A stretch of 64,000 bases of DNA, from positions 423-64,422 of the forward strand of contig CALMMC010000049.1 in NCBI GenBank assembly GCA_937868205.1. Reading direction: 5' to 3'. Shown here piece after piece: positions 328 through 41,303 of this stretch. A model generated the notes under the pieces. It was not told the origin of the DNA and did not search any database. It saw only the letters and a list, made by a program, of their open reading frames with translations. This stretch comes from an uncultured bacterium. Its GTDB lineage: Bacteria; Acidobacteriota; Aminicenantia; Aminicenantales; UBA4085. Within the stretch, counting starts at the first letter, position 1; the number at the start of each line of letters is the position of its first letter. Position numbers and translations under genes: made by a program.

Positions 328-587
328 AAATCAGAACCTGTTTATCCATTTCCCCAATTAAATCGGTACCTGTTAATTAAATCGGTACCTGTTTAACCAT
401 TTCCTTATTTTCCCCGGCTTATTGAATCGGTCAATCGGTACCTGTTTATCCATTTCCCCTTTCCACCGGATCAGGCGGAAAACACGGAAATGGTTGACCA
501 GGTGCAAATTTCAGGTGCAATTTTCGGCCTCGCTATTCTCGTCTTTCCCCGGCTTATTAAATCAGTACCTGTTTAACCATTTCCTCA
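328..587. repeat. REP cluster upstream of the RAYT: at least six copies/variants of the core AATCGGTACCTGTTTAWCCATTTCC (forward) and its reverse complement
   Basis: Copies sit at about 328-355, 361-375 (partial), 379-404, 433-457, 486-510 (inverted) and 559-584. The higher-order unit ccccggcttattaaatcRgtacctgtttaaccatttcc occurs twice. Confidence 0.85.
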
Positions 588-674
588 TTGCCGGCCGGAT
601 TTCCCCCGAAATGAGAATATTTCAAATCGCGGGACGTCTTTTTCATTGAATCCCGCGATTCCCGGAGACCAAAG

Positions 675-1349
675 ATGCCTCCCTTTAAGCGCATTGTCGC
701 CGTCAACCGCCCGCACCATATCACCAACCGGGGAAACCGCCGGCAAACCATTTTTTTCAGCGATGAGGACAGGAAGGTCTACCTCGGCCTTCTTGGCTGG
801 CATGCGGACAAGTACGGACTCAAATTTTGGGCCTATTGCCTGATGCACAACCATATTCATCTTATCGCGGTGCCGGAAAATCCCGAGAGCATGTCTCTGA
901 CCATTCGGGAGACCCATCGGAAATATTCCTCCTACATCAATATTCTCATGAATTGGAAAGGCACGCTTTGGCAGAGGCGTTTTTATTCGTTTCCTCTAGA
1001 AGACGCCCATTTGTACCGGGCGCTTCGTTATGTCGAGAATAATCCGGTTCGGGCCGGGATCGTTAAAAAAGCGGAGGAATACCGCTGGTCAAGCGCGCCG
1101 GCCCATGTGTTCGGCCGTCGAGACGGCTTGCTCTCCCCCAACGGGCTCGGCATCAAAAGGAATAACTGGAGGGCTTACCTCAGAGAACAGGAGGAAGAAG
1201 CCGAAATCAAGGATATCCGCGCCCGGTCGTTAACCGGCCGGCCCCTGGGCGGAGATGAATTCATCGCCGAGCTCGAGCAATCCCTGGATCTTGAGCTCCG
1301 GCATAAAAAGCCGGGCCGGAAAAAATCTGACGCGAACGGAAAGCCTTAA
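675..1349 (+). mobile_element. REP-associated tyrosine transposase (RAYT, IS200/Y1-HUH-like TnpA_REP)
   Basis: The 224-aa ORF carries the HUH motif (YCLMHNHIHLIAVPE) and a downstream catalytic-Tyr region (RYVENNPVRAG). It resembles the Y1 transposase/RAYT family and is flanked on both sides by inverted REP repeats. Confidence 0.85.
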
Positions 1350-1366
1350 AGGAAATCATCCCTTAT

Positions 1367-1514
1367 CCATTCGGCACCTGTCATTCGGTACCTGTTTATC
1401 CATTTCCCCTTTCCACCGAATCAGACGGGAAAACACGGAAATGGTTGACCAGGTACGGATTTGGTTAGAATTTATGTCCAGGAAACAGGGAAATGGTTAA
1501 ACAGGTTCCGAATT
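1367..1514. repeat. REP cluster downstream of the RAYT (forward copy 1383-1407; inverted copies 1437-1461 and 1488-1514)
   Basis: Same core as the upstream cluster. The segment ttccaccgRatcagRcgggaaaacacggaaatggttgaccaggt is near-identical to 458-503. The last copy overlaps the mnmA stop codon. Confidence 0.85.
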
Positions 1515-2645
1515 ATTGAGGACCCGGGAAATGGTCCCGCCGCCCAAAACGGCGTCCCCCTCATAGAAAACGGCCGCCTGCCCGGGAGTGATCGCCCTCT
1601 GCGGTCGGGCGAACTCGACGATCACGCTTTTCCTCGGTCCGGGGAAAAGCGTCGCCGGCTCTCCCTCGTGCCGCGAACGGATTTTGACATCCGCCGCCCG
1701 CGGTCCGTCGATCCCCGCGATCGCAACCCAGTTGACGCCGGCGACGGCGAAACGCGATTTGAGAAGAGCCTCGTCCGGCCCGGCGACGATTGTGTTGGCC
1801 GCTGCGTCCAGCGCAAGGACATAAAGCGGGCGCGGAGCGGCGATGCCCATCCCCTTCCGCTGGCCGATCGTGTAATTCAGGAATCCCTGGTGGCATCCGA
1901 TGATCTTGCCCTTTCCGTCGACGATATGTCCCGGCCGGAATGCACCGGGAATCCGTCCGCGCAGAAACGCGGCATAGTCGTCGCCTGGAATGAAACAGAT
2001 TTCCTGGCTTTCGGATTTCCGGGCGACGTGCAGTCTGAAACGCGCGGCCAAATCCCGGACTTCGGTTTTTTTCATCCCGCCCAGCGGGAAAATCGTCCGG
2101 GCCAGCGCCTCCTGGGGCAGGGCATAAAGGAAATACGACTGGTCCTTGCCGGTATCGACTCCCTTAAGAAGGCGCCAACGGCCGCTTTTCCCGTCGAAGT
2201 CGACACGAGCGTAATGGCCGGTCGCGATCTTCGCCGCTCCGAGCCGTTTCGCCCGGCCGAGCAATGGGCCGAACTTGACGAACCGGTTGCACCTCACACA
2301 GGGATTGGGCGTCCGTCCCCGGACATACTCGGCGACGAAATCCGCGACCACTGTCCGGTCGAACCGCCGCCGGAGATTCACGACGGCGTGGGGAATGCCC
2401 AAGTCGGCCGCTACCCGGGCGGCTTCCCGGGCGGCCGCGCCGCCGCCGCAGCTCCGGCCGTCGGCTTTCCCGCCGCATCCCTCCTCCTCTTTCCCCTCCC
2501 CTTCCCGTCCGGAGAAAAGATCCAGCGTGACGCCGGAAACCTTCCAGCCCTGCTCCCTCAAGACGGCCGCGGCCACGGAGGAATCGACCCCGCCTGACAT
2601 GGCGACGACGACGGCTTCAGGGCGGCTTGCGGCTTTTTCGGTCAT
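1497..2645 (-). CDS. mnmA: tRNA-specific 2-thiouridylase MnmA
   Basis: N-terminal PP-loop SGGVDSS, the conserved RTPNPCVRCN motif, and a C-terminus aligning end-to-end with E. coli MnmA (…TPGQAAVFYEGDAVLGGGTI). Confidence 0.9.
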   Translation of the reverse strand: MTEKAASRPEAVVVAMSGGVDSSVAAAVLREQGWKVSGVTLDLFSGREGEGKEEEGCGGKADGRSCGGGAAAREAARVAADLGIPHAVVNLRRRFDRTVVADFVAEYVRGRTPNPCVRCNRFVKFGPLLGRAKRLGAAKIATGHYARVDFDGKSGRWRLLKGVDTGKDQSYFLYALPQEALARTIFPLGGMKKTEVRDLAARFRLHVARKSESQEICFIPGDDYAAFLRGRIPGAFRPGHIVDGKGKIIGCHQGFLNYTIGQRKGMGIAAPRPLYVLALDAAANTIVAGPDEALLKSRFAVAGVNWVAIAGIDGPRAADVKIRSRHEGEPATLFPGPRKSVIVEFARPQRAITPGQAAVFYEGDAVLGGGTISRVLNNSEPV

Positions 2646-2739
2646 CGGTGGTTATGTTATATTATGTTATATTAGAAGGCGGCGGTCATTTTAACACTCT
2701 TTCCGACCGGGCTCCAGGCCGCTCGACTCGACGGAAATA

Positions 2740-3999
2740 ATGCGAAATACGACGCTGCGGACGACGGCGGCCCTCGTAAGATACCATGCCCAGGTCGGCT
2801 CCCGCGTCGCCATCCGGGCTCTCGCCCCCGTTCTCGCCTCAGCCTTCGGCCTCTTTTATCTCCTCCGCCCCGAGCTCTACATCATGCTTGCCCGCCGTCT
2901 TTTCGCCGAGGCCGAGCCGATCGCCCGCGGTCTTCTCATAACCGCCGCGCTTTTGGCCGCGGCCGCCGCAGCCCGAAAATCCGTTTGTTTCGGGCTGGGC
3001 GGATGGCTCCGCAGCCTCCCCGTCGGCGGGAGGGCTCATCGGCGGGCGGCCGTCTTCGCCATCACCCTGGCCGAAACGCCGATCACCTTTTTACTGTTCG
3101 CCTCCTTCTTTGTCGGGACGCGGGATCTTCGCCCTCCTTATCTCCTCGAGGCGGCCGGGCTCTTGCTGGCTTCCGCGGCCGCGGCGGCCGCGGTCGTCCC
3201 GGCGAAAAACAAGTTTTGGCGGGTCGTCATCGGGGCGGCAGCCGCCGTCTTGGCGGGTTCAGGAAATCCGGCCTATTTTGGGATCTCGATCCCCGTTTTT
3301 CTGGCTGTCGATTATCTCGGCGGTCCGTTCGAAAAAATCCGAGCCGGGACGGGCCGGCGGAAATGGATGTTCCCGATTCGTTTCCCGGCGTTGATCGGCG
3401 TGCGGGCGCTCGGACTCTCCGGCTGGTCGGGATATTTTCCGGCCGGGGCGGTCATCGGAATGACCGCTCTCTTCCTTAATAACAACGTTCTGTCCGATCA
3501 TCTCCGGGAAGCGGCCATGCGGACGGGAGGGGCGCTGAGCGCGGCGGTTTTCCTGGCGTTTACAGCCGGATTTCTCGTCGCCGTCCGCGCGCCCTGGCCA
3601 TGGAGCCGGTCTTGGCCGCGCTCGGCCCGACACCGGATTCTATCCGACGCTCTCTTTCTCGGGCTCCCGGCGTTACTTCTGGCTGTCCCCCTGCAGTGGA
3701 TCGGCTGGGCGGCCGTCTGGGGAGCCGCATCGTTTCTGCCGGCGGGAGCGACAAGAGCGGCCGGGGCGGTCAACGCGCCCCGGGAAAGCCGGTCGAAAAT
3801 ATTGGGGACGCTCTTGCTGGAAGGCGGGTTGGCCGCGGTCGTTTATGGACTGTGGACCGAAGCCGGCATTGCTTTCCTTTTTCTTACGCCGCTCCTCGTC
3901 GAGACCGCCGCCCGGCGGGAGCAGACGCTGAAAGTCACAGCCTGGGATGAGATGCATCACGACGCCGTCGGCGATCCCGGCTCTTGGAGCTCGATATGA
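2740..3999 (+). CDS. Polytopic Ala-rich integral membrane protein, probable permease partner of the downstream ABC ATPase
   Basis: Multiple hydrophobic segments; 16-nt overlap with the following ABC ATPase gene. No recognisable family, and the start codon is uncertain. Confidence 0.4.
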   Translation: MRNTTLRTTAALVRYHAQVGSRVAIRALAPVLASAFGLFYLLRPELYIMLARRLFAEAEPIARGLLITAALLAAAAAARKSVCFGLGGWLRSLPVGGRAHRRAAVFAITLAETPITFLLFASFFVGTRDLRPPYLLEAAGLLLASAAAAAAVVPAKNKFWRVVIGAAAAVLAGSGNPAYFGISIPVFLAVDYLGGPFEKIRAGTGRRKWMFPIRFPALIGVRALGLSGWSGYFPAGAVIGMTALFLNNNVLSDHLREAAMRTGGALSAAVFLAFTAGFLVAVRAPWPWSRSWPRSARHRILSDALFLGLPALLLAVPLQWIGWAAVWGAASFLPAGATRAAGAVNAPRESRSKILGTLLLEGGLAAVVYGLWTEAGIAFLFLTPLLVETAARREQTLKVTAWDEMHHDAVGDPGSWSSI

Positions 4000-4688
4000 T
4001 TCGATTCGAAAACATCTTCTTCGGCTACGAGAAAAACGTTCCGGTTTTTCAGGAGTTGAATCTCGACCTGGACGCGGGGCTGACGCTGCTTTTGGGACCG
4101 AACGGGTCGGGCAAGACGACCCTTCTAAAGATGGCCGCGGGCGTGGAAAAGCCCGATCGGGGCACGGTCCGGGTCGACGGAAAAGATCTTTGGAAAAACG
4201 AAGTCGCAGCCCGAAGGGAAATCGCCTACCTGCCCGAGCATCCCGATCTAACGCCCTATGCCTCCATCCGGGAGATCGTCCGGTTCGTCTGCCGGCTGCG
4301 CGGCGAACCGGTCCCCCGCGGAGAAGAAGCCCTGGCGACGCTGGACATGGACCGCGTGGCCGGCCGCTCAGTCCGGGAGCTTTCGCAGGGACAGCGGCGC
4401 CGGGCCGTGCTGGCCGCGGCGATGATCGGCCGGCCGAAGCACCTCCTGTTGGACGAGCCGCTGGAAGCGATGGACCGGCGGATGCGGGACGACATCATGA
4501 TTTGGATCGAAAGCCGGATCAAGGACGGGGCGGCGGCCGTCATCGTTTCCCACGACCTTGATCCGTTTTCCGTTCTGGCGACCTCGGCGGTTGGGTTGAA
4601 GGAAGGCCGGCCCGAACCACATCCCGAGCTTCCGGCTGAAGCGGCGGAACGGCACAAAATCCTCGAGCGGCTTGCCCGCGGTCTTTGA
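3984..4688 (+). CDS. ABC transporter ATP-binding protein
   Basis: Walker A GPNGSGKTT, ABC signature LSQGQRRR, Walker B LLLDEP. Confidence 0.85.
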   Translation: MELDMIRFENIFFGYEKNVPVFQELNLDLDAGLTLLLGPNGSGKTTLLKMAAGVEKPDRGTVRVDGKDLWKNEVAARREIAYLPEHPDLTPYASIREIVRFVCRLRGEPVPRGEEALATLDMDRVAGRSVRELSQGQRRRAVLAAAMIGRPKHLLLDEPLEAMDRRMRDDIMIWIESRIKDGAAAVIVSHDLDPFSVLATSAVGLKEGRPEPHPELPAEAAERHKILERLARGL

Positions 4689-4728
4689 TATTGAATTTAG
4701 GGACGCCCTCTCCGTCATCATTAATTAT

Positions 4729-4924
4729 TAATCGGTACCTGGTTAACTATTTCCGTATTTCTTCTCCCCCGAACTCATGAGACGGGAAAAAGCAATCTTG
4801 ATAAGGAATTATCATGAGTTGTTTCCAGATGGAATCGAGAAAATGGTTAACCAGGCTGGAATTTGGAATTTGCCCACGGAGGAAGCCGGTGGAAACAGGG
4901 AAATGGTTAAACAGGTTCCGATTT
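4729..4924. repeat. REP doublet/triplet (forward 4729-4754; inverted 4837-4864 and 4898-4924)
   Basis: Same REP core. The segment ggaaacagggaaatggttaaacaggttccga is identical to 1481-1511. Confidence 0.8.
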
Positions 4925-5033
4925 GCCGGCTCCAGGTTGATTTACTTGATGAAAAAGGGAAGATGGGTCTTGTGTCACGAAAAAGCATTTGCTAAAATGA
5001 TCTGCGTATTCTTATCCTTCAAGGAGCTCCACA

Positions 5034-5786
5034 ATGTCCGGTCATTCTAAATGGGCGTCCATCAAGCATAAAAAAGGCGCCGCCGACGCCAAGCGCGGCA
5101 AAGTCTTCACGAAAATCATCCGGGAAATCGCCGTTGCCGCCAGGGCCGGCGGGGGCGAACCGGACAAAAATCCGCGTCTGCGAAAGGCGATCCAGGACGC
5201 CAAGAACGCCAACATGCCCGCCGACAACATCAAGCGGGCCATCCAGAAGGGAACCGGACAATTGGAAGGCGTGTCCTACGAGGAAGCCATATTCGAAGGG
5301 TACGGACCGGGCGGCGTGGCTATTTATCTCACTGTGCTGACCGACAACCGCAACCGAACCGTTTCCGAAATCCGCCACATCTTCACAAAAAACGGCGGCC
5401 AGATCGGAACCCAAGGCTGCGTCGCCTTCCGTTTCAAACGGGGCGGCACGATCGACATCGAAAAAGCCGCGGTCGCCGAAGAGAAGCTCATGGAAATCGC
5501 CTTGAACGCCGGAGCGGAAGACATCACCGACGAAGGCGACATGTGGGAAGTCATCACTTCCCCCGACAAGTTCGACGCGGTATTGGAGGCGATCAAGAAA
5601 GAAGGAGTCGAGATCGTCGAGGCGACCAACGGCTACATCCCCGAGGACTACACCAAGGTCGAGGGCAAGCAGGCCCACCAAACCCTCAAGCTCGTCGAGG
5701 AGCTCGAGGACCACGATGATGTCCAGACCGTCGCGTCCAACTTCGACATCTCGCCGGAGGATCTCGCCTCGTACGAAAGCTCCTGA
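5034..5786 (+). CDS. yebC: YebC/PmpR-family transcriptional regulator
   Basis: MSGHSKWASIKHKKG…NMPADNIKRAI is the canonical YebC N-terminus. It sits in conserved synteny immediately upstream of ruvC. Confidence 0.9.
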   Translation: MSGHSKWASIKHKKGAADAKRGKVFTKIIREIAVAARAGGGEPDKNPRLRKAIQDAKNANMPADNIKRAIQKGTGQLEGVSYEEAIFEGYGPGGVAIYLTVLTDNRNRTVSEIRHIFTKNGGQIGTQGCVAFRFKRGGTIDIEKAAVAEEKLMEIALNAGAEDITDEGDMWEVITSPDKFDAVLEAIKKEGVEIVEATNGYIPEDYTKVEGKQAHQTLKLVEELEDHDDVQTVASNFDISPEDLASYESS

Positions 5787-5791
5787 TTTTC

Positions 5792-6310
5792 GTGCCGGGC
5801 CACAAGCCCATGCGGATACTCGGGATCGATCCCAGCAGCGTCGCGACCGGATACGGGATCGTTCAATCCGACGGAAACGATTCCCAGGTTCTCGCTTACG
5901 GCGCGATCAAGCCGTCCCGCAAAGCCGCCCTTCCCATCCGGCTCCTCGAAATTAAAACCGGGCTTGAACGCCTGATCTCAGCCTACAATCCAGAAGAAAT
6001 CGCGATCGAAAATCCTTTTTTCGGCCTCAATATCAAGACAGCGATCACTTTGGGCCAAGTCCGCGGGGCGGTTTTGGTCGCCGTCGCCTCGGCTTCCCTC
6101 CCCCTCTTCGAATATTCCCCTCGCGAGATCAAGAAGGCCGTGACCGGATACGGTCAGGCGGAAAAAACCCAAGTCGGGATCATGATTCGGGCCCTTCTCC
6201 GGATCGACGATGACGCCATGGAGGAGGATGCCTCCGACGCCCTCGCCTGCGCCTTCTGCCACCTCAATACGCGGCTGGCGAAAAAGAACCTGGAGGAGAT
6301 GAAAATCTGA
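5792..6310 (+). CDS. ruvC: Crossover junction endodeoxyribonuclease RuvC
   Basis: The MRILGIDPSSVATGYGIV N-terminal catalytic Asp region and overall length match RuvC. The true start may be the internal Met at 5810. Confidence 0.9.
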   Translation: MPGHKPMRILGIDPSSVATGYGIVQSDGNDSQVLAYGAIKPSRKAALPIRLLEIKTGLERLISAYNPEEIAIENPFFGLNIKTAITLGQVRGAVLVAVASASLPLFEYSPREIKKAVTGYGQAEKTQVGIMIRALLRIDDDAMEEDASDALACAFCHLNTRLAKKNLEEMKI

Positions 6311-6374
6311 CGGCCGCGGCCGCGGCCGGCCTCATTTCGGCGCCTGGTCCGCCTTTTCCCTTTTTCCGGAGGAG

Positions 6375-6510
6375 ATATTCAGTACCTGGTTATCCATTTC
6401 CTTATTATCAGCTTTCATCCGCCTGGAAAAAATCCTTGATAGGATTACATATTTATCGTCAGATGCACCGGACGGAAAGAAATGCGGAAATGGTTGAACA
6501 GGTACCGATT
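6375..6510. repeat. REP inverted doublet (forward 6375-6401, inverted 6486-6510)
   Basis: atattcagtacctggttatccatttcc … ggaaatggttgaacaggtaccgatt. Confidence 0.8.
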
Positions 6511-6524
6511 GATCAACACTCCGG

Positions 6525-7607
6525 TTAGACCGCGAACCGGAAATTGATGATATCCCCGTCCTGGACCTGATACTCCTTGCCCTCCAGCCGGAGCGTCCCC
6601 CGCGTCCGGCATTCGGCCATCGATCCGGCCGCGATGAATTCGCTGAAAGGCACGACCTCCGCACGGATGAAGCCGCGCTCGATGTCGGAATGGATCTCCC
6701 CCGCCGCGGCCAGGGCCTTCGTCCCGTCCCGGATCGTCCAAGCCTTGACTTCGTCCTGTCCAACCGTGAAAAACGACAACAGCCCCATCAGCCGGTAAGT
6801 GGCGGCGATGAGTTTCTCCCGGGCCGGCCGCGTGATCCCGTAATCCGCCAAAAAGGCTTTGAGCTCCGCGTTCGGCAACTCGCGCAATTCCATCTCGATC
6901 CGGGCCGAAAGCCCGATGACGGCTGTATTCGCCTGCTCCGCCCAGCCGGCAAACGGGGCGAGAACCTCGCCTTCACGGCGGATGTCTTCTTCGTCCAGAT
7001 TGACGGCCACGATCAGCGGCTTCTGCGTCAAGAATCGGTACCCGCGGATCAGGAGCTCCTCGTCCGGCTTGAACTCGAGGAGCCGGAGCGGACGCTCCGC
7101 CTCCAGGTGGGCCCGGCAGGTTTTCAGCACGGCCAGCTCGCGGACATCCCGATCGCTTTTTTTGGCCGCAATCTCCTTTTCCAGACGATCGAAGCGTTTC
7201 TCGATGACGGCCAAATCGCTCAGGAGAAACTCCGTTTCCGCGTCCCGAAGATCGCGGACCGGATCGACGGATTCCCTCGGATGCGGAACCGCCGGGTCTC
7301 CAAAGGCTCGGACAACCAGAAGCAGCGCGTCGACGGTCCGGAGTTTCCCCAAGAACTGCTCGCTGAAGCCGGTTTTACGGCCGTCCCCCGCCGCCACTCC
7401 GGCCAACTCGGAGAATTCGATCGTCGCCTGAATTTTTTTCTTCGGCTTGTAGATCTCGGCCAAGCGGTCGACCCGGTCGTCCGGAACCTTGACTACGGCC
7501 ACGGGCTCGGCCCCGTGAGCCGCGGCCTCCGCCGGCGCCATCCCGGTCAAGGCGGCGAAAAGAACGGTCTTGCCGGAAAGAGGCGGACCAACAAGGCAGA
7601 TTTTCAC
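6525..7607 (-). CDS. ychF: Ribosome-binding ATPase YchF/Ola1
   Basis: P-loop GPPLSGKT. The C-terminal TGS domain aligns with E. coli YchF (…AWTIRDGTKA…GFIRAEV…QVQDGDIINFRF). Confidence 0.9.
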   Translation of the reverse strand: MKICLVGPPLSGKTVLFAALTGMAPAEAAAHGAEPVAVVKVPDDRVDRLAEIYKPKKKIQATIEFSELAGVAAGDGRKTGFSEQFLGKLRTVDALLLVVRAFGDPAVPHPRESVDPVRDLRDAETEFLLSDLAVIEKRFDRLEKEIAAKKSDRDVRELAVLKTCRAHLEAERPLRLLEFKPDEELLIRGYRFLTQKPLIVAVNLDEEDIRREGEVLAPFAGWAEQANTAVIGLSARIEMELRELPNAELKAFLADYGITRPAREKLIAATYRLMGLLSFFTVGQDEVKAWTIRDGTKALAAAGEIHSDIERGFIRAEVVPFSEFIAAGSMAECRTRGTLRLEGKEYQVQDGDIINFRFAV

Positions 7608-7682
7608 AATGATCTCTCTTTAAAATGAATCCGTTCGACTAATGTTCAGAATACGTTTTTCCCCGGTTTTTTTCAAGAAATG

Positions 7683-7873
7683 AATCGGCACCTGTTCAAC
7701 CATTTTCCTATTCCCATTCATCTTCGAATGAGAGTATTTCGGGAAAAGGGCCAATATGGCCGCCGGCGCCGCAGGCAAAAGCAAATCCGGAAATGGATAA
7801 CCAGGTACCGATTTCGAGATTTCGAAATGAGGAAATGGATAAACAGGTACCGATTTAACGGGGACCGATTTCG
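7683..7873. repeat. REP cluster (forward 7683-7708; inverted 7787-7811 and 7829-7853; partial 7861-7873)
   Basis: Same core, with GGTACC retained in the two inverted copies. Confidence 0.8.
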
Positions 7874-7918
7874 CCGGAAATATCGCGGGAAAAACGATTT
7901 CGGGGGGAAAGGCCTCCG

Positions 7919-8524
7919 CTAGCGCCCGGCGCAGCCCTGATCGGTCCTCACCAGCCGGGTCGCGTCGAATCCCATCTCCTCGCAGCGGCCGATGATCTGC
8001 TGGTACAAGCTCTCGTCGATCGACGGCGTGCGGGCCAGGATCCACAGGTAATCGCGGTTGGGGGCCCCGACGACGACATGGCTGTAGTCCTCGGGCAATT
8101 CCAGAATCCAGTAATCCCCGCGGAAAGGCCAGAAAAATTGAACGCGGAGCTTGGCATTGCCCGTTCCCTCCACGACAAAGGCTTTCCCCCTGGCGACTTT
8201 GATCTCGCCCTCGGCCGAATCCTTCCGGCAGGAATTGACGACCCGGACATACCCCTTGTCCGTCATCTCATATTCGGCCTTGGAACAATGGCACCCCTTC
8301 TGAAACTTTTGGGGAAAGGCGGCGATCTCGTACCATGTCCCCATATACCTTTGCAGGTCGACATAGGCGACCGTTTCCAGGGCGGGAACACCGGCCGTTC
8401 CCGCCGTTTTCGCTTCACTCCCTCTCGCCGTCCCGGGCCCGTCTTCCGAAGCCGCGGCCTCCGCCGCGCCCACGGTAACGGCGAAAAACCCCAAAGCAGC
8501 TAGAATAATGATGATATCCTTCAT
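7919..8524 (-). CDS. blc: Bacterial lipocalin (Blc-like) with signal peptide
   Basis: Lipocalin SCR1 motif YMGTWYEIA. The start is chosen at MKDIIIIL (GGGAGG RBS upstream); the ORF track gives a longer alternative from 8560. Confidence 0.8.
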   Translation of the reverse strand: MKDIIIILAALGFFAVTVGAAEAAASEDGPGTARGSEAKTAGTAGVPALETVAYVDLQRYMGTWYEIAAFPQKFQKGCHCSKAEYEMTDKGYVRVVNSCRKDSAEGEIKVARGKAFVVEGTGNAKLRVQFFWPFRGDYWILELPEDYSHVVVGAPNRDYLWILARTPSIDESLYQQIIGRCEEMGFDATRLVRTDQGCAGR

Positions 8525-8606
8525 GTTGTTATTATCCTCCCGATTCCGCCCGCGTTTCAAGCGTTATTGACAGGCCCGGCCGCTCCGGCTATAACTCGGA
8601 AGGATA

Positions 8607-9041
8607 ATGAAAATCCTCTTCGTCTGTTACGCAAACCTGTGCCGGAGCCCCCTGGCCGAGGCGATCTCCGAGTCCGAGTTCTCCGGCCGGATCGAAGCCC
8701 GGAGCGCCGGCGTCGCCCCCGCCCCCGGCCGTCCTTTCGAGGAGGCAGTCGATGTCGCCCGAAGGTTCTACAAGCGGAACATCTCCCGCCACCGGACGCG
8801 CCATGTCCTCGACTTTTCGCTCCAGGACTTCGACTACATTATCGGCATGGATTCGAACGTCTTCATGCAATTGACGGCGATGTCCGAAATTCCGAAGGAG
8901 AAACTCTACGGTTGGGAAATCCCCGACCCGGCCGGCCTAGGCGTGGAAACCTACGAGAAAGCCGCCCGCTTGATCGAACGGGAGATCGAACATTTTCTCG
9001 AGTTCCGGGAGCGGGAAGCCTACGAAGCCGGCTCTTCCTGA
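8607..9041 (+). CDS. Low-molecular-weight phosphotyrosine phosphatase / ArsC-like (LMWPc family)
   Basis: P-loop ILFVCYANLCRSPLAEAI (CX5R); 144 aa. Confidence 0.75.
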   Translation: MKILFVCYANLCRSPLAEAISESEFSGRIEARSAGVAPAPGRPFEEAVDVARRFYKRNISRHRTRHVLDFSLQDFDYIIGMDSNVFMQLTAMSEIPKEKLYGWEIPDPAGLGVETYEKAARLIEREIEHFLEFREREAYEAGSS

Positions 9042-9136
9042 GCCCCCCGACGGCCTGATGGCAGAAGATCAAGCCGCCGGCGGCCAAAGAGAACAGAGAA
9101 CGACGAACAAAACGCGGTGATCATAACAAGAGAAAA

Positions 9137-10411
9137 ATGAAAGAGGAGAACGCCATGGCCCTGGACCTCGAACGCGTCCGTCATCAATTCCCCGCCCTCG
9201 CCGGCAACGCCGTTTTTCTGGACAACCCCGGGGGCACCCAGGTCGTCAAGAACTGTCTCGACCGGATGCTCGACTATCTCATCGAGGCCAACGCCAACCA
9301 CGACGGCGCCTTCAAAACGAGCCGCGAGTCGGACGCCCTGGCCGCCCGCGCCCGCCAGGCCGCGGCCGATTTTCTCAACGCCCGCCCCGAAGAAGTCGTC
9401 TTTGGGGCGAACATGACGACCCTGACCTTTCATCTTTCGCGCTCCCTCGCTCCGCGCCTCGGCCCCGGCGATTCCCTCGTCGTCACCCGTCTTGACCACG
9501 ACGCCAACATTTCGCCCTGGCTTCTCCTGGCCCGCGACCGGGGGGCCGAAATCCTCTGGGTCGATTTCCATCCCGAAGACGGCACCCTCGACTTGGCGGA
9601 TCTCGACCGGGCCTTGGAGAAAAAACCCAAGCTCATCGCCGTCAGCTACGCCAGCAACGCCCTCGGGACGATCAATCCCGTGGCCGATATCGCCGCCCGG
9701 GCCCGGGCGGCCGGGGCGCTTGTCTTCGTCGACGCCGTCCATTACGCCCCCCACGGGCCGATCGACGCGGCCGCCCTCGGCTGCGACTTCCTGGCCTGCT
9801 CGGCGTACAAGTTCTTCGGTCCCCATCTCGGCCTTCTCTATGGGCGGCGGGAACTCCTGGAGGAGCTTCCGGCCTATAAAGTCCGGCCGGCCGACGACAG
9901 GGTCCCTTTCCGATTCGAGACGGGGACGCCCAACTTCGAGGCGCTCGCCGGCCTGCTCGGGACGATCGAGTATCTCGAGGAGCTCGGAACACGCTTCGGC
10001 GAGGATCCCGAGGCCGAGCCGGCCGACGATCCGTCCGGACGGAAGCGGAAGCTCCGCCGGGCGGCGGCGGCCGTCCGGGCCCATGAGCGGACGCTGGCCG
10101 CGGCCATGTTCGAAACGCTCCAAGCGATCCCCTCGATGAAAATCTTCGGGCTCACGGACCCGGCCCGCTTCGACGAACGCGTCGCGACCTTCTCATTCCG
10201 CCTGGGGGACGTCCCCCCGCGGCGGATCGCCGAGGAGCTGGACCGCGACGGGATCTATGCCTGGGACGGGCACTACTATGCCCTCGAGACGGTTCGGCGC
10301 CTCGGCCTCGAGGACAAGGGCGGCATGCTCCGGGTCGGGGCCGTCCATTACAACACTCTCGAAGACATCGCCCGGCTCGGCCGGTCGCTGGCCCGGATCG
10401 CCAAGGCCTGA
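9137..10411 (+). CDS. Class V aminotransferase, cysteine desulfurase-like (SufS/CsdA-related)
   Basis: Fold-type I PLP enzyme with the SAYKFFGPHLG lysine motif; overall similarity to cysteine desulfurase family proteins. Confidence 0.8.
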   Translation: MKEENAMALDLERVRHQFPALAGNAVFLDNPGGTQVVKNCLDRMLDYLIEANANHDGAFKTSRESDALAARARQAAADFLNARPEEVVFGANMTTLTFHLSRSLAPRLGPGDSLVVTRLDHDANISPWLLLARDRGAEILWVDFHPEDGTLDLADLDRALEKKPKLIAVSYASNALGTINPVADIAARARAAGALVFVDAVHYAPHGPIDAAALGCDFLACSAYKFFGPHLGLLYGRRELLEELPAYKVRPADDRVPFRFETGTPNFEALAGLLGTIEYLEELGTRFGEDPEAEPADDPSGRKRKLRRAAAAVRAHERTLAAAMFETLQAIPSMKIFGLTDPARFDERVATFSFRLGDVPPRRIAEELDRDGIYAWDGHYYALETVRRLGLEDKGGMLRVGAVHYNTLEDIARLGRSLARIAKA

Positions 10412-10548
10412 ATTTTTTTCGGGACGTCGGCGGAAGAATCATCAATCCGCCGCGGATCTGGTCAGAGAGCGATTCGCCCCGGCGGCCGAAACGTCCGGCG
10501 CCGGATGCTTCCGTGCAGATGTGGTGAACCCGGAACAGGTCTCCCGGA

Positions 10549-10690
10549 TCAGGTCTTTTCGGCCAGCCGGCGAAAGCTTCGATTGAGGGCGATGAACCAC
10601 AGTGACCAGCCGAGGTGCATGATTCTCTGCTTGGCGCCGATCCAGGGGCCGAGAGTATCCGGCATATACGCCGTTCGTTGTGGTAAAATA
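10549..10690 (-). pseudogene. C-terminal remnant of a native high-GC DUF998 gene
   Basis: Reverse-strand translation FILPQRTAYMPDTLGPWIGAKQRIMHLGWSLWFIALNRSFRRLAEKT* aligns with the C-terminus of the adjacent intact DUF998 ORF (…ILPGYFGLKQRFLYAGWTVWSVYLSFRFLKLSAK*). It is cut off by an in-frame stop exactly at the AT-rich junction. Confidence 0.55.
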
Positions 10691-10705
10691 AATTAAAAGA
10701 AGACT

Positions 10706-11281
10706 ATGAGAATAAAATATTTATTAATTTTTGGATTGTTAAGTCCGTTGGTTTTTTGGATTACGACAATTCTTTGCGGATTACGACTTGAAGGATATAA
10801 TCATTTTACCTGGTTGGTAAGTGAATTAGGAGCATTAGGGACCAGGACACAGGTTATTTTTACATTCGGATTAGTTTTAAGTTCCATCCTTAATTTTGTT
10901 TTCGTTATTGGTTCATTTAAATTTTGTAAAATGAGGCAATTGAATCTGATTCCTGTGATATTCCTATTGTTTTATTCTTTCCTTGCGGGACCAGCTCTAT
11001 TTCCAATGCCTTTGAGACTGCATGGTATTGTTGGAATCCCTTTTCCTCTGATAATGTTTGCTCCGATCGTGAGCCTCATTTTCTGGAGAAAGAAGGAGTA
11101 TCAGGTAAAAATAAGAGTGATAGCCATCATTAGTTTCCTGATTATGCTATTGGGATTTTTAATTTATTTTCCGAATATCCTGCCTGGATATTTCGGATTA
11201 AAACAAAGATTTTTATATGCAGGCTGGACTGTTTGGTCTGTTTATTTGAGCTTCAGGTTTTTGAAATTAAGTGCGAAATAA
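10706..11281 (+). CDS. DUF998-family membrane protein encoded in a roughly 600-bp low-G+C cassette
   Basis: A 191-aa multi-TM ORF. By eye the segment is about one-third G+C against flanks in the high 60s, with sharp compositional boundaries near 10690 and 11290. Confidence 0.75.
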   Translation: MRIKYLLIFGLLSPLVFWITTILCGLRLEGYNHFTWLVSELGALGTRTQVIFTFGLVLSSILNFVFVIGSFKFCKMRQLNLIPVIFLLFYSFLAGPALFPMPLRLHGIVGIPFPLIMFAPIVSLIFWRKKEYQVKIRVIAIISFLIMLLGFLIYFPNILPGYFGLKQRFLYAGWTVWSVYLSFRFLKLSAK

Positions 11282-11384
11282 CTCAAGTGAACTGGAGGAC
11301 ATCCCCGATCTGGCATTTACCCTGCGGGCTGACCGGGGTGTCGGAATGACCCCTCCCGATTAATATTGCGTTGGTGTCAGGTCT

Positions 11385-11506
11385 TACATTAAACATTTGG
11401 AACCCAGGTGGCTGTAGTCGCCCAGCCGGGCGGCGCAGAGAAATATCGTTCCCCAAAACAACAGGACCGCCAGGATGCCTGCATCGAGCCATCGGCTTTT
11501 ATTCAT
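11385..11506 (-). pseudogene. N-terminal remnant of the same native DUF998 gene
   Basis: Reverse-strand translation MNKSRWLDAGILAVLLFWGTIFLCAARLGDYSHLGSKCLM*. The core LLFWGTIFLCAARLGDYSHL parallels LVFWITTILCGLRLEGYNHF of the intact gene; it is truncated after about 40 codons. Confidence 0.55.
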
Positions 11507-11556
11507 GGGGGCGATATTCCCTTGAACGTTCATTCGGAAACAAGACGAGCGAGATC

Positions 11557-12123
11557 CTATTTCCTTTGGCTCCACAGCCGGTCGCGGGTCTTGACCCGGA
11601 AATATCCCCGGCCGACGGCCCGGATGTCCTCCACCGAATAGAACGCCTCGGGCCGGCATTGACGGACCGTCTCGATGACCCGGGGCAGATTGACCCGGTC
11701 GAGGACCAAGAAGATGATCTTGACCTTCCCGCTTTTTCCCTCTCCGTCGATGCAGGTCACGCCGTGCTTTTCCTCCCGGAGGCGTTCGACGAGCGCGTCC
11801 GCATTGTTCGGAGTGATGACCCGGAGAAGGACGTTCCCCACGGCCAGTTTTTCCTCGATCCGCATGCCGACGTAGGTCCCCATGGCGAAGCCGGCCCCGT
11901 AGGCCAGGTAATAAAAAGGATTGGTCAGGTTCTGCATGATCTGGGTGATGGCCACCAGCCAGATAATAACCTCGAAAAAACCCAGAAGCGGGGCTAGAAG
12001 CCGCCGGCCCTTCGAGATGAAGATGATCCGCATCGTCTGGAGGCTGACGTCGAAGATGCGGGCCGTGAAAATCAGCAGGGGAAGAATCACCCATTTGAAG
12101 AGGTCGAAATTCAGGAATTCCAT
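11557..12123 (-). CDS. UPF0316/DUF2179-family membrane protein (YitT-like)
   Basis: MEFLNFDLFKWVILPLLIFTARIFDVSLQTMRIIFISKG… matches the DUF2179 pattern. The start is chosen at MEFLNF; the longer ORF-track version carries an R-rich upstream extension. Confidence 0.65.
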   Translation of the reverse strand: MEFLNFDLFKWVILPLLIFTARIFDVSLQTMRIIFISKGRRLLAPLLGFFEVIIWLVAITQIMQNLTNPFYYLAYGAGFAMGTYVGMRIEEKLAVGNVLLRVITPNNADALVERLREEKHGVTCIDGEGKSGKVKIIFLVLDRVNLPRVIETVRQCRPEAFYSVEDIRAVGRGYFRVKTRDRLWSQRK

Positions 12124-12137
12124 CGCCGCCTTCCTCC

Positions 12138-12515
12138 TCACTCCGCGGGCCGGGTTCCGGCGGCCGCGGACCATTTTGCCCGGAGGGCCGGGTCGTCCAG
12201 CCTCTTGACCAGCACGCCCCCGACGACCGGCCGCGCTTGGAAGACCGTCTTTTTTCCTGTGTGCGCTTCCGGAGAGATGACGTCGACGGCCAAGAGGCAA
12301 CCGTCGCTGAATTTCTCCTTGGGGGCCGGAAGCGGCGTTCCGGCCAGGTCGGCCGCCGACCGGATGCTGAAGCAGGGATCATGGGCGATCCGCGGCTCGG
12401 CCGGCGGCCGGAAGGGCGTCGTTTCCGCGGCCGAGGCGGCGGGAAAAAGAGCGGGCGTAATCAGGAAGATGCGGCAAAAGCGGGCGATCATGACGTCCTC
12501 CGGGGAATATTTCAA
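12138..12515 (-). CDS. Hypothetical secreted protein (signal peptide), immediately upstream of the UPF0316 gene
   Basis: The ORF has an N-terminal hydrophobic signal-like segment MIARFCRIFLITPALFPAASAAE. There is no recognisable domain; weakly supported. Confidence 0.35.
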   Translation of the reverse strand: MKYSPEDVMIARFCRIFLITPALFPAASAAETTPFRPPAEPRIAHDPCFSIRSAADLAGTPLPAPKEKFSDGCLLAVDVISPEAHTGKKTVFQARPVVGGVLVKRLDDPALRAKWSAAAGTRPAE

Positions 12516-12571
12516 CTGAGTCTATTTTATGTTTCGCGTGAGTATTTCTCAATCCCGGCGCATGGCCGGTC

Positions 12572-12650
12572 AATTCGGAACCTGTTTATCCATTTCCATA
12601 TTTCAACAGGTTCAGATTTAAATCGGGAAATGGATAAACAGGTTCAGATT
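12572..12650. repeat. REP inverted doublet (forward 12572-12597, inverted 12626-12650)
   Basis: aattcggaacctgtttatccatttcc … ggaaatggataaacaggttcagatt. The inverted copy overlaps the PiT stop codon. Confidence 0.8.
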
Positions 12651-13644
12651 AAAATAGGATGCCGAAGAACTCGTACAAAAGGCCGGCGCAGAGGGCGCTC
12701 ATCGGGATCGTCAAAATCCAAGCCCAGACGATCTTGATCGTCACCTGCCACTTGACCGCGGCCGCGTTCTTGGCCGCTCCGACGCCGGCCACGGCCCCGG
12801 TGATGACATGGGTCGTCGAGACGGGAACCCCCATGTGAGTGGCTGTGAAGATGGAGACGGCGCTGGCCGCCTCGGCGCAGAATCCGTCGATGGGTTTAAG
12901 CTTGACGATCCGCTGGCCCATCGTCTTGACGATCCGCCATCCCCCCGAAAGCGTGCCCAAGGCGATCGCCGTGTGAGCCGAGAGGACGATCCACAAGGGG
13001 ATGTGGAATTCCTTCATGTGTCCCGAGGTGAACATCAGGCCGGCGATGAGACCCATCGTCTTCTGGGCGTCGTTTCCGCCGTGGCCGAGGCTATAGAGAG
13101 CGGCCGAGGCGAATTGCAGGCGCTTGGCCCAGACATCGACGACGGCCATCGGCCGCTTGTGAACGATCCAGGTCGTCACGACCTTGAGGACGATCCCGAA
13201 GATCATCCCGAGCAAAGGGGCCAGGACGATAAACACCGCGATTTTCACCCAGCCGGAAACGATGACGACCTTGAAGCCGGCCTTGGCCACAGCCGCCCCG
13301 AGATATCCGCCCATCAGGGAGTGGGAGGAGCTCGAGGGCAGTCCCCAGTACCAGGTCAGGATGTTCCAGGAGACGGCTCCCAGAAGCCCGCAGAGAATGA
13401 CCATCGGGTCGACGACGGAAATGTCGATCAAGCCGGTTCCGATGGTTTTAGCCACGGCCGTGCCGAAGATCAGAAAGGCCACGAAATTGAAGAACGCGGC
13501 CCAGATGACGGCTTGCTTGGGGCTGAGCACCCGCGTTGAGACGATCGTCGCGACCGAGTTGGCCGCGTCGTGCAGGCCGTTGGTGAAATCAAAAATGAGG
13601 GCGATGGCGATGATGAAGGCGATGAAACCGAAGCTGGACTCCAT
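12649..13644 (-). CDS. Inorganic phosphate transporter, PiT family
   Basis: The GNDAQKTMG / GLHDAANS signature pair of PHO4/PiT. The start is chosen at MESSFGF. Confidence 0.85.
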   Translation of the reverse strand: MESSFGFIAFIIAIALIFDFTNGLHDAANSVATIVSTRVLSPKQAVIWAAFFNFVAFLIFGTAVAKTIGTGLIDISVVDPMVILCGLLGAVSWNILTWYWGLPSSSSHSLMGGYLGAAVAKAGFKVVIVSGWVKIAVFIVLAPLLGMIFGIVLKVVTTWIVHKRPMAVVDVWAKRLQFASAALYSLGHGGNDAQKTMGLIAGLMFTSGHMKEFHIPLWIVLSAHTAIALGTLSGGWRIVKTMGQRIVKLKPIDGFCAEAASAVSIFTATHMGVPVSTTHVITGAVAGVGAAKNAAAVKWQVTIKIVWAWILTIPMSALCAGLLYEFFGILF

Positions 13645-16287: not shown

Positions 16288-17631
16288 ATGGCATCTCGAG
16301 GTAAGTGGAGCTCACACGTCGGCTTTATCCTTGCCGCCGCTGGTTCGGCCGTCGGCCTGGGCAACATCTGGCGTTTCCCTTATCTCGCCGGAAAGAACGG
16401 GGGCGCGCTATTCGTGCTGATCTATATCGCCTGCGTGATCGTTCTGGGGCTGCCGGTCATGCTGGCTGAGCTCTCCCTCGGCCGGGCCACGGGAAAAAAC
16501 GCGGTCGGGGCGTTCCGGGCGATCCGGCCGGGGACGAAATGGCATTGGATCGGTTACTTGAATGTGGTCACGGCGGTGATGGTCCTCTCCTTCTATTCGG
16601 TGATCGCCGGCTGGACGCTGGGCTACTTTGTCAAGACGTTGGGCGGAACGTTTAAATCGACCGGAAAAGACGATGTCGTCGCCGTCTTCAGCCGGTTCAT
16701 CGCTTCGCCGGGACTGCAACTGCTGTTGCTCGCGATATTCATCTTCCTGACCGTTTCCATCGTCAGCAAGGGCGTCTCAGCCGGCCTGGAGAAATTTTCG
16801 AAAGTGATGATGCCGGCGCTGTTCGCGATCCTTATCCTGCTCATGGTTTATTCGCTGACCCTGCCCGGGGCCGAGAGGGGGTTGGCGTTCTACCTGAAGC
16901 CGGACTTCTCGGAAATCAACGGTCGGGTGTTTCTGGAGGCAATGGGACAGGCTTTCTTCAGCCTCAGCCTGGGGATGGGAGCCATGCTGACCTACGGATC
17001 CTACTTGAGCAAGAAAGAAAAGCTGGTCGCCTCGGCCGCCTGGGTGGCGGTTATCGACACTTCAGTCGCCCTCCTGGCCGGCTTCATCATTTTTCCGGCC
17101 TTGTTTTCACAGAACATGGCGCCAGACCAGGGTCCCGGGCTGGTGTTCGCCATCCTTCCGGTGATCTTCGGCAAAATCCCCGGAGGCACGCTGTTTGGGG
17201 CCTTTTTTTTCGTCATGCTGGCCTTGGCCGCCTTGACCTCGACCATCTCCCTCCTCGAGATTCCGGTGTCCTTCCTCATCGACGAGAAGAAATTGACTCG
17301 CCGCCGGGCCGCATGGCTGATGGGGGGAGCGGCTCTCCTGTTCGGCATTCCCTCGTCCCTCTCCGGCGGCAGCGTGAAATTCTTCAGTCGCCTGCCTGCG
17401 TTTCACATCGATTTTCTTTCGCTGTGGGACAAGGTTTGGGGGAATATCTCCGTGAGCGTCGGCTCCCTCTTGATCGCCCTTTTCGTGGTACATGTCTGGA
17501 AGACGGACAAGGCTCTCGCAGAGATCTCCGCCGAAGGCGCCGGCTTTCGTTTGGCGCGGATCTGGATCCTAGCAATCAAGTACGTCTGCCCGCTGTTGAT
17601 CCTCGTAGTCCTCGTCAGCCAGTTCATTTGA
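16288..17631 (+). CDS. Sodium-dependent transporter, SNF/NSS family
   Basis: N-terminal GFILAAAGSAVGLGNIWRFPY signature. Confidence 0.85.
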   Translation: MASRGKWSSHVGFILAAAGSAVGLGNIWRFPYLAGKNGGALFVLIYIACVIVLGLPVMLAELSLGRATGKNAVGAFRAIRPGTKWHWIGYLNVVTAVMVLSFYSVIAGWTLGYFVKTLGGTFKSTGKDDVVAVFSRFIASPGLQLLLLAIFIFLTVSIVSKGVSAGLEKFSKVMMPALFAILILLMVYSLTLPGAERGLAFYLKPDFSEINGRVFLEAMGQAFFSLSLGMGAMLTYGSYLSKKEKLVASAAWVAVIDTSVALLAGFIIFPALFSQNMAPDQGPGLVFAILPVIFGKIPGGTLFGAFFFVMLALAALTSTISLLEIPVSFLIDEKKLTRRRAAWLMGGAALLFGIPSSLSGGSVKFFSRLPAFHIDFLSLWDKVWGNISVSVGSLLIALFVVHVWKTDKALAEISAEGAGFRLARIWILAIKYVCPLLILVVLVSQFI

Positions 17632-40952: not shown

Positions 40953-41143
40953 CGATCCGCGCCGCGGCTCGGGGCAAGACCCGCCCGCCTCGTTCTTTCC
41001 GGCCAGGGGGCGAAGGATTTTCAGTCCTAACGACGGGCGTCGTTTTCGCGATCATTAAGCTGAATCCGCACGATTTTCCGATTCCTATAAAGAAAAGGAT
41101 TTAAAGGAAATACAGGGAACTAAAAAAAAATATTAAATTTCTC

Positions 41144-41171
41144 TTGACACGCGTAACCTTTGCGTTATTAT
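41144..41171 (+). promoter_or_regulatory. Near-consensus sigma70 promoter (TTGACA, 16-nt spacer, TATTAT) followed by a TATGAC-N9-GTCATA palindrome (41181-41201)
   Basis: ttgaca at 41144-41149 and tattat at 41166-41171, inside an AT-rich roughly 200-bp block. The palindrome immediately downstream of the -10 is operator-like. Confidence 0.6.
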
Positions 41172-41212
41172 ATATAACGTTTATGACACTATTTGAGTCA
41201 TAGGGGTTAACA

Positions 41213-41281: not shown

Positions 41282-41303
41282 GTCCCTCCGAGGAAACAGG
41301 AAC

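Follow-up and report, generated by a model that had tools for sequence, protein, structure and literature searches.

Does a gene encoding a Y1/HUH endonuclease that lies between copies of a short repeat belong with these repeats, and if so, which of the known systems of transposase and repeats do they form together? This question is raised by the first 13 kb of a 64-kb stretch of DNA (contig CALMMC010000049.1, assembly GCA_937868205.1), called the window below, from an Aminicenantes bacterium with a GC content of about 63%, for which the "high-GC lineage" of the initial annotation was a vague description. That annotation saw here a REPIN-RAYT system, i.e., a REP-associated tyrosine transposase (RAYT) with inverted doublets of repetitive extragenic palindromes (REPs). 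The kind of system was rightly recognized, a RAYT-clade Y1 gene being accompanied by dispersed inverted doublets, but the repeats themselves do not qualify as REPs, since the single units do not fold and carry no GT[AG]G foot. In the reading that we favor, with a probability of about 0.7, the gene encodes a single-copy, vertically inherited endonuclease of the RAYT clade, of the type known as TIRYT, the cognate site of which would be a unit of about 33 nt, and pairs of inverted arms built from this unit would be the working elements.

The 224-aa HUH protein detected in the initial annotation carries a Pfam Y1_Tnp domain (2.7e-12), and its only meaningful sequence match in the PDB is 4ER8, the TnpA_REP of Escherichia coli. 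The HUH motif consists of H60-I61-H62 and the catalytic tyrosine is Y119, in the sequence RYVENNP; H60, H62, and Y119 align with H59, H61, and Y115 (catalytic tyrosine region) of 4ER8. Among 33 homologues showing identities down to 46%, residues N59, H60, H62, Y119, E121, N123, P124, S139, S140, and H144 are invariant, as are G188, P190, and G214 in the C-terminal tail, and W99, Q100, and W138 occur in 90% or more of the sequences. The AlphaFold (AF2) model (pLDDT 91, pTM 0.87) also had 4ER8 as its best Foldseek match (E 1.4e-10, TM 0.75 on the target), versus about 1e-6 for the TnpA proteins of IS608 and ISDra2. The protein is thus closest to E. coli TnpA_REP in terms of both its sequence and its predicted fold, and far from the TnpA of IS200: the NCBIfam model REP_Tyr_transpos (NF047646) gave 67 bits, whereas the IS200 TnpA model (NF033573) gave 13.2 bits for a cut-off of 55, in agreement with the earlier choice of a RAYT rather than an IS200/IS605 enzyme.

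The REP_Tyr_transpos model covers only residues 6-139. Beyond the W138-S139-S140 motif, the protein continues into a tail of about 80 aa (conserved stretch 150-216) which is absent from E. coli RayT, carries the sequence TGRPLG...GRKK and forms helices 162-170, 175-187, and 194-204 in the AF2 model; no Pfam family matched residues 141-224. With E <=1e-30, the full-length family includes 493 representatives of clusters formed at 50% identity; the named homologues come first from Candidatus Aminicenantes and then, at about 50% identity, from Omnitrophota, Nitrospira, and others. In the classification of Quentin 2018 (PMC6006769), class 2 TnpA_Y1 proteins are defined by Y---NP, and subclass 2.1, corresponding to Group 1 of Bertels, has a median length of 238 aa and an SS-motif proximal tail followed by a distal C-terminal domain; most of the TIRYTs of Di Nocera were assigned to this subclass. 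The NHIH, WQ, and YVENNP motifs are compatible with the table entries for subclass 2.1 and also for subclass 2.4, while the SS motif, the conserved tail, and the length of 224 aa fit the architecture of subclass 2.1, so that the protein probably belongs to subclass 2.1 (Group 1), as judged from its motifs and architecture and not from the published hidden Markov models (HMMs).

The 25-mer AATCGGTACCTGTTTAWCCATTTCC has 16 matches with up to three mismatches in the window versus none in each of 100 dinucleotide shuffles, and the 21-nt core has 17 matches with up to four mismatches, every one of them inside 329-12650. Together with the partial or degenerate copies (361-378, 425-432, 1369-1382, 4839-4863, 7857-7871, and 12605-12619), the total exceeds the 18 copies which the initial annotation had counted as a minimum in the first 13 kb; its statement that none occur farther on also holds, since the search of 12651-64000 yielded no copies even at five mismatches. 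The window and the metagenome contigs together provided 74 distinct extended copies, the alignment of which gives the consensus (T)TA-AATC[G/C]G[T/A]ACCTG[T/G]TTA[A/T]CCATTTCC-nn-ATTT(C), in which ACCTG and CCATTTCC are nearly invariant. The 25-nt core is part of a full conserved unit of about 33 nt, AAATCSGWACCTGKTTAWCCATTTCCnnATTTC, and a GT[AG]G foot (GTAG or GTGG) is absent at both ends of the 74-copy consensus.

The folding of these sequences depends on their arrangement. A unit taken singly does not fold (-1.3 to -2.1 kcal/mol, z -0.5 to -1.9), whereas the z values of the window doublets range from -1.2 to -8.5: the degenerate pair near the gene (430-511) reaches -12 kcal/mol (z -1.2), the doublet at 6377-6510 has a z of -3.4 and that at 12573-12650 reaches -22 kcal/mol (z -8.5), and two '++ --' quadruplets of other loci gave z values of -8.9 and -10.5. 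The REPIN hairpins predicted in the initial annotation do exist, then, in doublets and quadruplets; they arise only from inverted units, and the term repetitive extragenic palindrome does not strictly apply to the unit, since it does not fold on its own and both of its ends lack GT[AG]G. The only Rfam match, a sub-threshold hit to the plant miRNA precursor MIR5185 at 12566-12661(-) (27.5 bits vs. 101.7), is an artefact of the near-perfect long hairpin at this place. These data bear directly on the idea of a classical REP/REPIN-RAYT system, in which the 25-mer would be a palindrome recognized as a stem-loop with a guide tetranucleotide, as in E. coli and Pseudomonas (Bertels Groups 2/3). A RAYT-like enzyme, flanking repeats, inverted doublets, and long vertical inheritance would all be expected in this case and are all found here, but the absence of a stem-loop in the single units largely refutes it, a GT[AG]G foot is missing from the consensus, the protein, with its additional C-terminal tail, does not reach the RAYT equivalog cut-off, and the abundance in what is a partial sample is apparently moderate rather than in the hundreds. 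We consider a classical system to be highly improbable.

The copies in the window form six clusters (Table 1), which are located where the initial annotation placed them and are all intergenic according to the gene calls on identical contigs. Inverted pairs are present in five of the six, with a spacing of either 24-29 nt (433/482, 1383/1437, and 12573/12626) or 81-144 nt (6377/6486, 7683/7789, and 4730/4899), which is a somewhat wider range than the 25-80 nt first proposed for pairs that are themselves real. A half-unit of 12-16 nt (AATCGGTACCTG..) lies directly outside a full unit in 20 distinct copies and shows the variant of its neighbor; the two full units of an arm are often 40-42 nt apart, and tandem runs with a period of 31-32 nt also occur (L134, L133). 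An origin of the half-units by nested insertion, with a new element entering a unit after ...CCTGTTTA, was considered and rejected: none of the matching 3' remainders sought were found, versus 20 termini with a half-unit and a full unit. The half-unit is better read as a component of the element terminus, because the remainders expected from nested insertion are missing.

On either side of the Y1 gene, the cognate repeats consist of direct copies of an 80-nt doublet mixed with inverted single units, and the bracketing by inverted REPs described in the initial annotation is in this respect too simple. The arms across the gene are 24-42 nt long and show 83-92% complementarity. The near-identical composite blocks noted on the two sides are larger than first described: in direct orientation, 430-511 matches 1380-1462 at about 92% identity, spacer included. 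The upstream cluster also contains a perfect 19-nt tandem duplication (356-374/375-393).

Two units overlap the ends of genes, namely those at mnmA and PiT, as the initial annotation had pointed out. The unit at 1489-1513 encodes the last five codons of mnmA (1497-2645, minus strand; NSEPV) and its TAA stop, and that at 12626-12650 overlaps the stop codon of PiT (PHO4) by 2-3 nt. In the related lineage L156, the mnmA call runs through that lineage's units and has 459 aa, vs. 382 here. Since NSEPV and the stop are encoded by the unit and the call in L156 is lengthened through its units, the repeat has apparently remodeled this housekeeping gene at its 3' end.

Table 1. Features of the window and unit variants of the window lineage and its relatives (units are 25-nt matches; strand in parentheses).
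Feature	Position	Strand	Description
Y1/HUH endonuclease gene	675-1349	+	RAYT (TnpA_REP) clade, TIRYT-like; 224 aa, contains YCLMHNHIHLI
Upstream cluster	329-584		Divergent csoR-like(-)/Y1 gene(+) gap; units 329-353(+), 380-404(+), 433-457(+), 482-506(-, degenerate), 560-584(+)
Half-units of upstream cluster	361-374, 425-432		Inside 329-584
Upstream 80-nt doublet	430-511		+ unit, 24-nt spacer, - unit; direct copy of 1380-1462
Downstream cluster	1369-1513		Convergent Y1 gene(+)/mnmA(-) gap; half-unit 1369-1382(+); units 1383-1407(+), 1437-1461(-), 1489-1513(-)
Cluster ABC ATPase/yebC	4730-4923		ABC ATPase(+)/yebC(+) gap; units 4730-4754(+), 4839-4863(-, degenerate), 4899-4923(-)
Doublet ruvC/ychF	6377-6510		Convergent ruvC(+)/ychF(-) gap; units 6377-6401(+), 6486-6510(-)
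Cluster ychF/lipocalin	7683-7871		ychF(-)/lipocalin(-) gap; units 7683-7707(+), 7789-7813(-), 7831-7855(-); half-unit 7857-7871(-)
Near-perfect doublet at PiT	12573-12650		Unnamed ORF(-)/PiT (PHO4)(-) gap, upstream of the PiT 3' end; units 12573-12597(+), 12626-12650(-); partial 12605-12619(-)
Unit variant, window lineage			AAATCGGTACCTGTTTAWCCATTTCC
Unit variant, L153			AAATCGGTACCTGGTTTACCGTTCCCC
Unit variants, L156			AAATCGGTAGCAGGTCATCCATTCCCC; second subfamily GGTGCCAGGTTACTCGTTTCCC
Unit variant, L152			AAATCGGTGCCAGGTTATCCATTCCC
Unit variant, L151			AATTCGGGGACAGGTTACCCATTTCCCGAATT

The gene and the repeat vary together from one lineage to another. In all six related loci, which include those of an Omnitrophota metagenome-assembled genome (MAG; L154) and a 7.6-Mb contig (L155), the Y1 gene lies between inverted arms of 29-40 nt showing 84-97% complementarity, and in 7/7 loci (four Aminicenantes lineages, the Omnitrophota MAG, and one further contig) it is flanked by the unit of its own lineage. 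Cross-searches with up to three mismatches yielded no units of the window type in L153, L156, or L151; conversely, the window lineage contained no unit of the types found in these three. In L156, the gene is enclosed in a '++ gene --' arrangement (units at 9791 and 9831 on one side, 10714 and 10753 on the other), and three 250-nt '++ --' elements with a common internal sequence occur within 10 kb of it; these two forms would stand to each other as an autonomous element to its miniatures. L156 also carries a second subfamily of units (GGTGCCAGGTTACTCGTTTCCC, at 17400-17565 and 18740-18850), which coexists within 20 kb with the subfamily flanking the gene; no second Y1 gene was seen at this locus.

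Two explanations in which the Y1 enzyme plays little or no part can be judged in the light of this co-variation. Inverted terminal repeats with a variable internal sequence are what would be seen if the elements were ordinary miniature inverted-repeat transposable elements (MITEs) with terminal inverted repeats (TIRs) of 25-33 nt, mobilized by a DDE transposase encoded elsewhere, the proximity of the Y1 gene being coincidental. This is extremely improbable, since a coincidence would not be reproduced in 7/7 loci and no target-site duplications are evident: they were sought by eye at the ends of the elements and none were seen. The units might otherwise be sites selected for a function in the host, bound by a nucleoid or regulatory protein or forming hairpins at the ends of transcripts, with slippage or recombination changing their numbers and the Y1 protein acting as a sequence-specific binder or processor rather than a mobilizer, or being only loosely linked to them. 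The fact that the same gaps are occupied in long-diverged lineages is consistent with selected sites, as are the spacing of 40-42 nt, which is close to four helical turns and suits the binding of double-stranded DNA, the tandem nature of the unit changes between strains, the conserved helical tail, which could bind DNA, and the two units overlapping gene ends. However, the unit sequence changes together at all the sites of a lineage, tracking the Y1 gene which it flanks; whole 250-nt elements have been duplicated, including internal sequence that belongs to no unit; the gaps that are shared hold elements of different architecture; and the invariant HUH and tyrosine residues argue for a cutting enzyme rather than a mere binder. 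We therefore regard selection for a host function as unlikely.

The history of the gene differs from that of an insertion sequence (IS). The exact protein occurs in 127 assembly blocks, with the same neighborhood at the 10/10 places listed; there is one copy of the gene in the window, and among the contigs found through the repeat, only those of the RAYT locus encode the Y1 protein. The position between the csoR-like gene and mnmA is kept in L153 (74% aligned identity) and in L156 (64%), the latter being syntenic with the window lineage over 20 kb, and a second conserved locus, between lpxD and trxB, is occupied in L151 and L152. No tnpB gene is present next to the gene, its neighbors being the csoR-like gene and mnmA. 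Since it is a single-copy gene with a locus that is stable down to 64% protein identity, its behavior is that of a domesticated RAYT-type gene with rare relocation and not that of an active insertion sequence.

This history also weighs on the possibility that the gene and its arms (329-1513) still form an autonomous element, either IS200/IS605-like or a mobile TIRtron (a RAYT-like gene between TIRs), of which the doublets would be MITE-like derivatives. The '++ gene --' arrangement of L156 does mirror the '++ --' miniatures, the occurrence of the gene at two loci across Aminicenantes implies no fewer than two events of movement or acquisition, and Group 1 is ranked as the most IS-like group of RAYTs (Bertels 2017, PMC5581495). 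An autonomous element is nevertheless very unlikely in view of the single copy at one locus, the IS200 score of 13 bits vs. a cut-off of 55, the presence of Y---NP instead of Y---Q, the lack of a tnpB neighbor, and the absence of any match to the 21-mer in viral contigs.

The repeats are not evenly distributed. When the window lineage was extended upstream by means of metagenome contigs, 10 clusters were found between -11.8 and +11.9 kb of the gene start, with about 31 units in these 24 kb, and no clusters were found either in the window at 12651-64000 or in a further 5.4 kb upstream. Units occur in 6/14 of the AT-rich segments of the first 13 kb versus 0/22 of those beyond (Fisher p 0.0015); these segments served as a proxy for intergenic DNA because ORF-free gaps (without open reading frames) are unusable at 63% GC, where spurious ORFs occur nearly everywhere. 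The expectation that the unit is not confined to the clusters of the window was borne out: metagenome contigs carry it, in the same arrangements, in five or more unlinked regions, of which two are also dense (5 clusters in 14 kb and 3 in 10.5 kb), and a 666-kb contig has only one site with the exact 21-mer. An 18-mer (ACCTGKTYAWCCATTTCC) searched against 596 Gb of genome contigs gave at least 112 single chance matches in unrelated taxa, the pattern being too short and degenerate, and no second unit was present beside any listed match. Overall, the unit family looks dispersed but patchy and moderately abundant, as judged from the window and an incomplete metagenome collection (the contig of L010 was not among the matches) and not from a complete genome.

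Comparisons between strains and lineages show that the clusters change. One 31-nt unit and a 16-nt duplication distinguish strains in the cluster located 7.3 kb upstream of the gene, and L133, a relative showing 92-93% identity, carries additional units in the 4.7-, 7.7-, and 12.6-kb clusters (one extra + unit at ABC ATPase/yebC, one additional unit at ychF/lipocalin, and five units in all at PiT). Four gaps (ResB/CcsA, DUF2284/AIRS, ruvC/ychF, and ychF/next gene) are occupied in the window lineage and L156 alike, with elements of differing architecture, each composed of its own lineage's unit; the ruvC/ychF gap of L156, for example, contains a '++ --' element from another subfamily. An element also fills the CcsA/DUF2284 gap of L156, a gap in which the window lineage has none. 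Because the shared gaps hold different architectures with lineage-specific units and one gap is filled in one lineage and empty in the other, these data point to continuing replacement or homogenization rather than passive decay.

An apparent loss of the -291 unit in the strain L002 (GCA_035342995.1) was discarded: it is an assembly gap and not a deletion, a run of N at about 9680-9770 (window 354-444) falling exactly in the upstream repeat cluster. Such repeats break short-read assemblies, and the numbers of units in MAGs are therefore underestimates.

The distribution could also be explained if the enzyme acted mostly near its own gene and overwrote the existing clusters, giving a local concerted evolution resembling gene conversion rather than a genome-wide spread. 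This would account for the 10 clusters in about 24 kb around the gene versus none in the next 51 kb, and for the fact that the same gaps have been kept in long-diverged lineages with units that are uniform within a genome but differ between lineages. Such a local action is possible but doubtful.

To return to the reading favored here, the working elements would be the pairs of inverted arms, namely '+ -' doublets of about 75-135 nt and '++ --' quadruplets of about 150-250 nt, the arms of which often begin with a half-unit followed by the two spaced units, and which would fold into long hairpins on single-stranded DNA; the gene itself is located between such arms, which corresponds to the TIRtron/REPtron arrangement. 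The enzyme would recognize the units and cut and rejoin the DNA there, thereby copying, deleting, and homogenizing non-autonomous intergenic elements, mostly in or beside existing clusters, and these processes would result in the strain-level differences in the number of units and in the lineage-specific unit sequences. The data show the repeat family and its anatomy, its linkage to the gene and their co-variation, the catalytic residues and fold of the protein, the capacity of the elements to form hairpins, and the polymorphism of the clusters, whereas binding, cleavage, and the mechanism of mobility are what we infer.

Several points weigh against this reading. We know of no biochemical evidence for any TIRYT-type enzyme acting on such units, and the E. 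coli TnpA_REP on which the analogy for binding and cleavage is based recognizes a hairpin and a GTAG guide, both of which are absent here. The score of 67.4 bits with NF047646 is below the 80-bit cut-off, the placement in the subclass is based on motifs and architecture and not on the authors' HMMs, and the abundance was estimated on the incomplete sample described above. No clean new insertion at a formerly empty site was found between close strains: the differences consist of tandem gains and losses of units, for which slippage or recombination without the transposase could be sufficient. Lastly, no REP-like sequences were reported for subclass 2.1 by Quentin 2018 (PMC6006769).

Among the systems described so far, it is the TIRtron/TIRYT variant of RAYT systems that fits best, and not the classical REP/REPIN, because the units are non-palindromic and have no foot and the protein is below the cut-off and has a C-terminal tail. 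TIRtrons were defined as RAYT-like (TIRYT) genes located between long non-palindromic TIRs; the TIR families are moderately abundant, occur in dimers or clusters, and include a distinct Acidobacteria group, and many TIRs contain the motif GGGGWSAS, while other TIRYT TIRs are devoid of it (Di Nocera 2013, PMC3733652). The present locus likewise has a Y1 gene between long non-palindromic inverted repeats, a family arranged in dimers and clusters, and a protein longer than classical RAYTs with an SS-motif tail, in which NH[IV]H, WQ, and Y[IV]E.NP fit the table of subclass 2.1; the relatives L151 (GGGGACAG) and L154 (GGGGACAC) carry GGGGWSAS in their TIRs. Unlike the majority of TIRs, however, the window unit has GGTACCTG at this position, and the arms combining a half-unit and a full unit, the two units 40-42 nt apart, the '++ --' quadruplets, and the Aminicenantes host, which is outside the published sets, also differ from the TIRtrons described. 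As regards subclass 2.1, the difference is that a clear repeat family co-varying with the gene is present here. In the literature searched, TIRYTs were found only in Di Nocera 2013 (PMC3733652) and Quentin 2018 (PMC6006769), and no link between Aminicenantes and tyrosine transposases was found.

The function is most likely to resemble that of a REPIN-RAYT pair. As in the systems of Pseudomonas and E. coli (Bertels & Rainey 2011, PMC3116915; Nunvar 2010, PMC2817692; PMC3479197), a single-copy, vertically inherited Y1/HUH gene lies between cognate repeats, intergenic inverted doublets form hairpins, composite clusters resemble BIMEs (bacterial interspersed mosaic elements), each gene has the repeat sequence of its own lineage, the best structural match is the TnpA_REP structure 4ER8 (Messing 2012, PMC3479197), and the whole doublet is replicated along with its spacer, as in 430-511/1380-1462 and in the 250-nt elements of L156. 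The differences lie in the non-palindromic units without a GTAG guide, the conserved tail of about 80 aa, the score below the NCBIfam cut-off, and a strongly patchy distribution with a copy number which, in an incomplete metagenome sample, is apparently in the tens and not in the hundreds. Canonical REPs usually exceed 100 copies per genome.

With the TnpA proteins of IS200/IS605 (IS608, ISDra2), the enzyme shares the HUH/Y1 fold and the catalytic residues, and presumably the same chemistry, in which single strands are cut and rejoined without any target duplication; it differs from them by having Y---NP and not Y---Q, a single copy at a fixed locus, no tnpB, and no small subterminal hairpins. 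The class 3 TnpA_Y1 of Acidobacteria and Planctomycetes are likewise associated with atypical non-GTAG repeats in an Acidobacteria-related host, Solibacter usitatus having about 600 atypical structures (Quentin 2018, PMC6006769), but class 3 combines Y----Q with a CnGA-footed hairpin, in contrast to the Y---NP and the units without a hairpin found here.

Some other features of these loci were observed. A perfect palindrome (ATACCCCCAGGGGGTAT) at 292-308, in the short stretch upstream of the csoR-like gene (minus strand, start at 263) that precedes the first unit, has similar sequences in L153 and L156, and looks like a candidate CsoR-type operator of the divergent copper operon (csoR-like gene, copper P-type ATPase, YHS protein). 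The gap between the ABC ATPase gene and yebC contains, in the window, the repeat cluster and a doubtful 78-aa ORF call (4814-5050); the orthologous region of L156 (14310-16075, corresponding to window 4689-5033) is a 1.7-kb gap with several short paralogous Gly/Cys-rich ORFs (e.g., MNPLMYEKPEMIRLGADQGAGWCIAGSGATLSGGYLYCW...), the products of which could be small secreted or modified peptides. At the lpxD locus, L152 has a PIN-domain toxin pair (1008-1817) between the epimerase and ATP synthase genes, which is absent at the same place in L151. The segment 10619-11578 of the window, which spans the DUF998 gene (10706-11281) and its flanks, is strongly AT-rich (minimum GC 0.20 in 80 nt, vs. about 63% in the genome) and may be recently acquired DNA, and another AT-rich intergenic stretch, at 41010-41326 (minimum GC 0.26), contains no repeat units.

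The system found in this Aminicenantes bacterium is of a kind already known, in the form of a little-studied variant in a new lineage. The retention and vertical inheritance of a transposase and its miniature elements by bacteria are best exemplified by RAYTs and REPINs, and to our knowledge, nearly all that has been learned about them comes from Proteobacteria. The longer TIRYT/subclass 2.1 type is widespread, as shown by the number of clusters in the present family, yet one large survey detected no associated repeats. The interest of the locus lies in the series of co-varying genes and units, the architecture of the arms, the concentration of clusters near the gene, and the occupation of shared gaps by units specific to each lineage; in practical terms, the repeats break metagenome assemblies, as in the case of the run of N in L002. 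If the enzyme does act mostly near its own gene, the RAYTs of subclass 2.1 (Group 1), which were reported to have no REPs, would prove to have cognate repeat families of their own. With one gene, two conserved loci, five lineage-specific unit variants, and a regular arm architecture, the Aminicenantes clade forms a natural series which makes the DNA site of a TIRYT-type enzyme directly testable and which could show whether the clusters are locally maintained.

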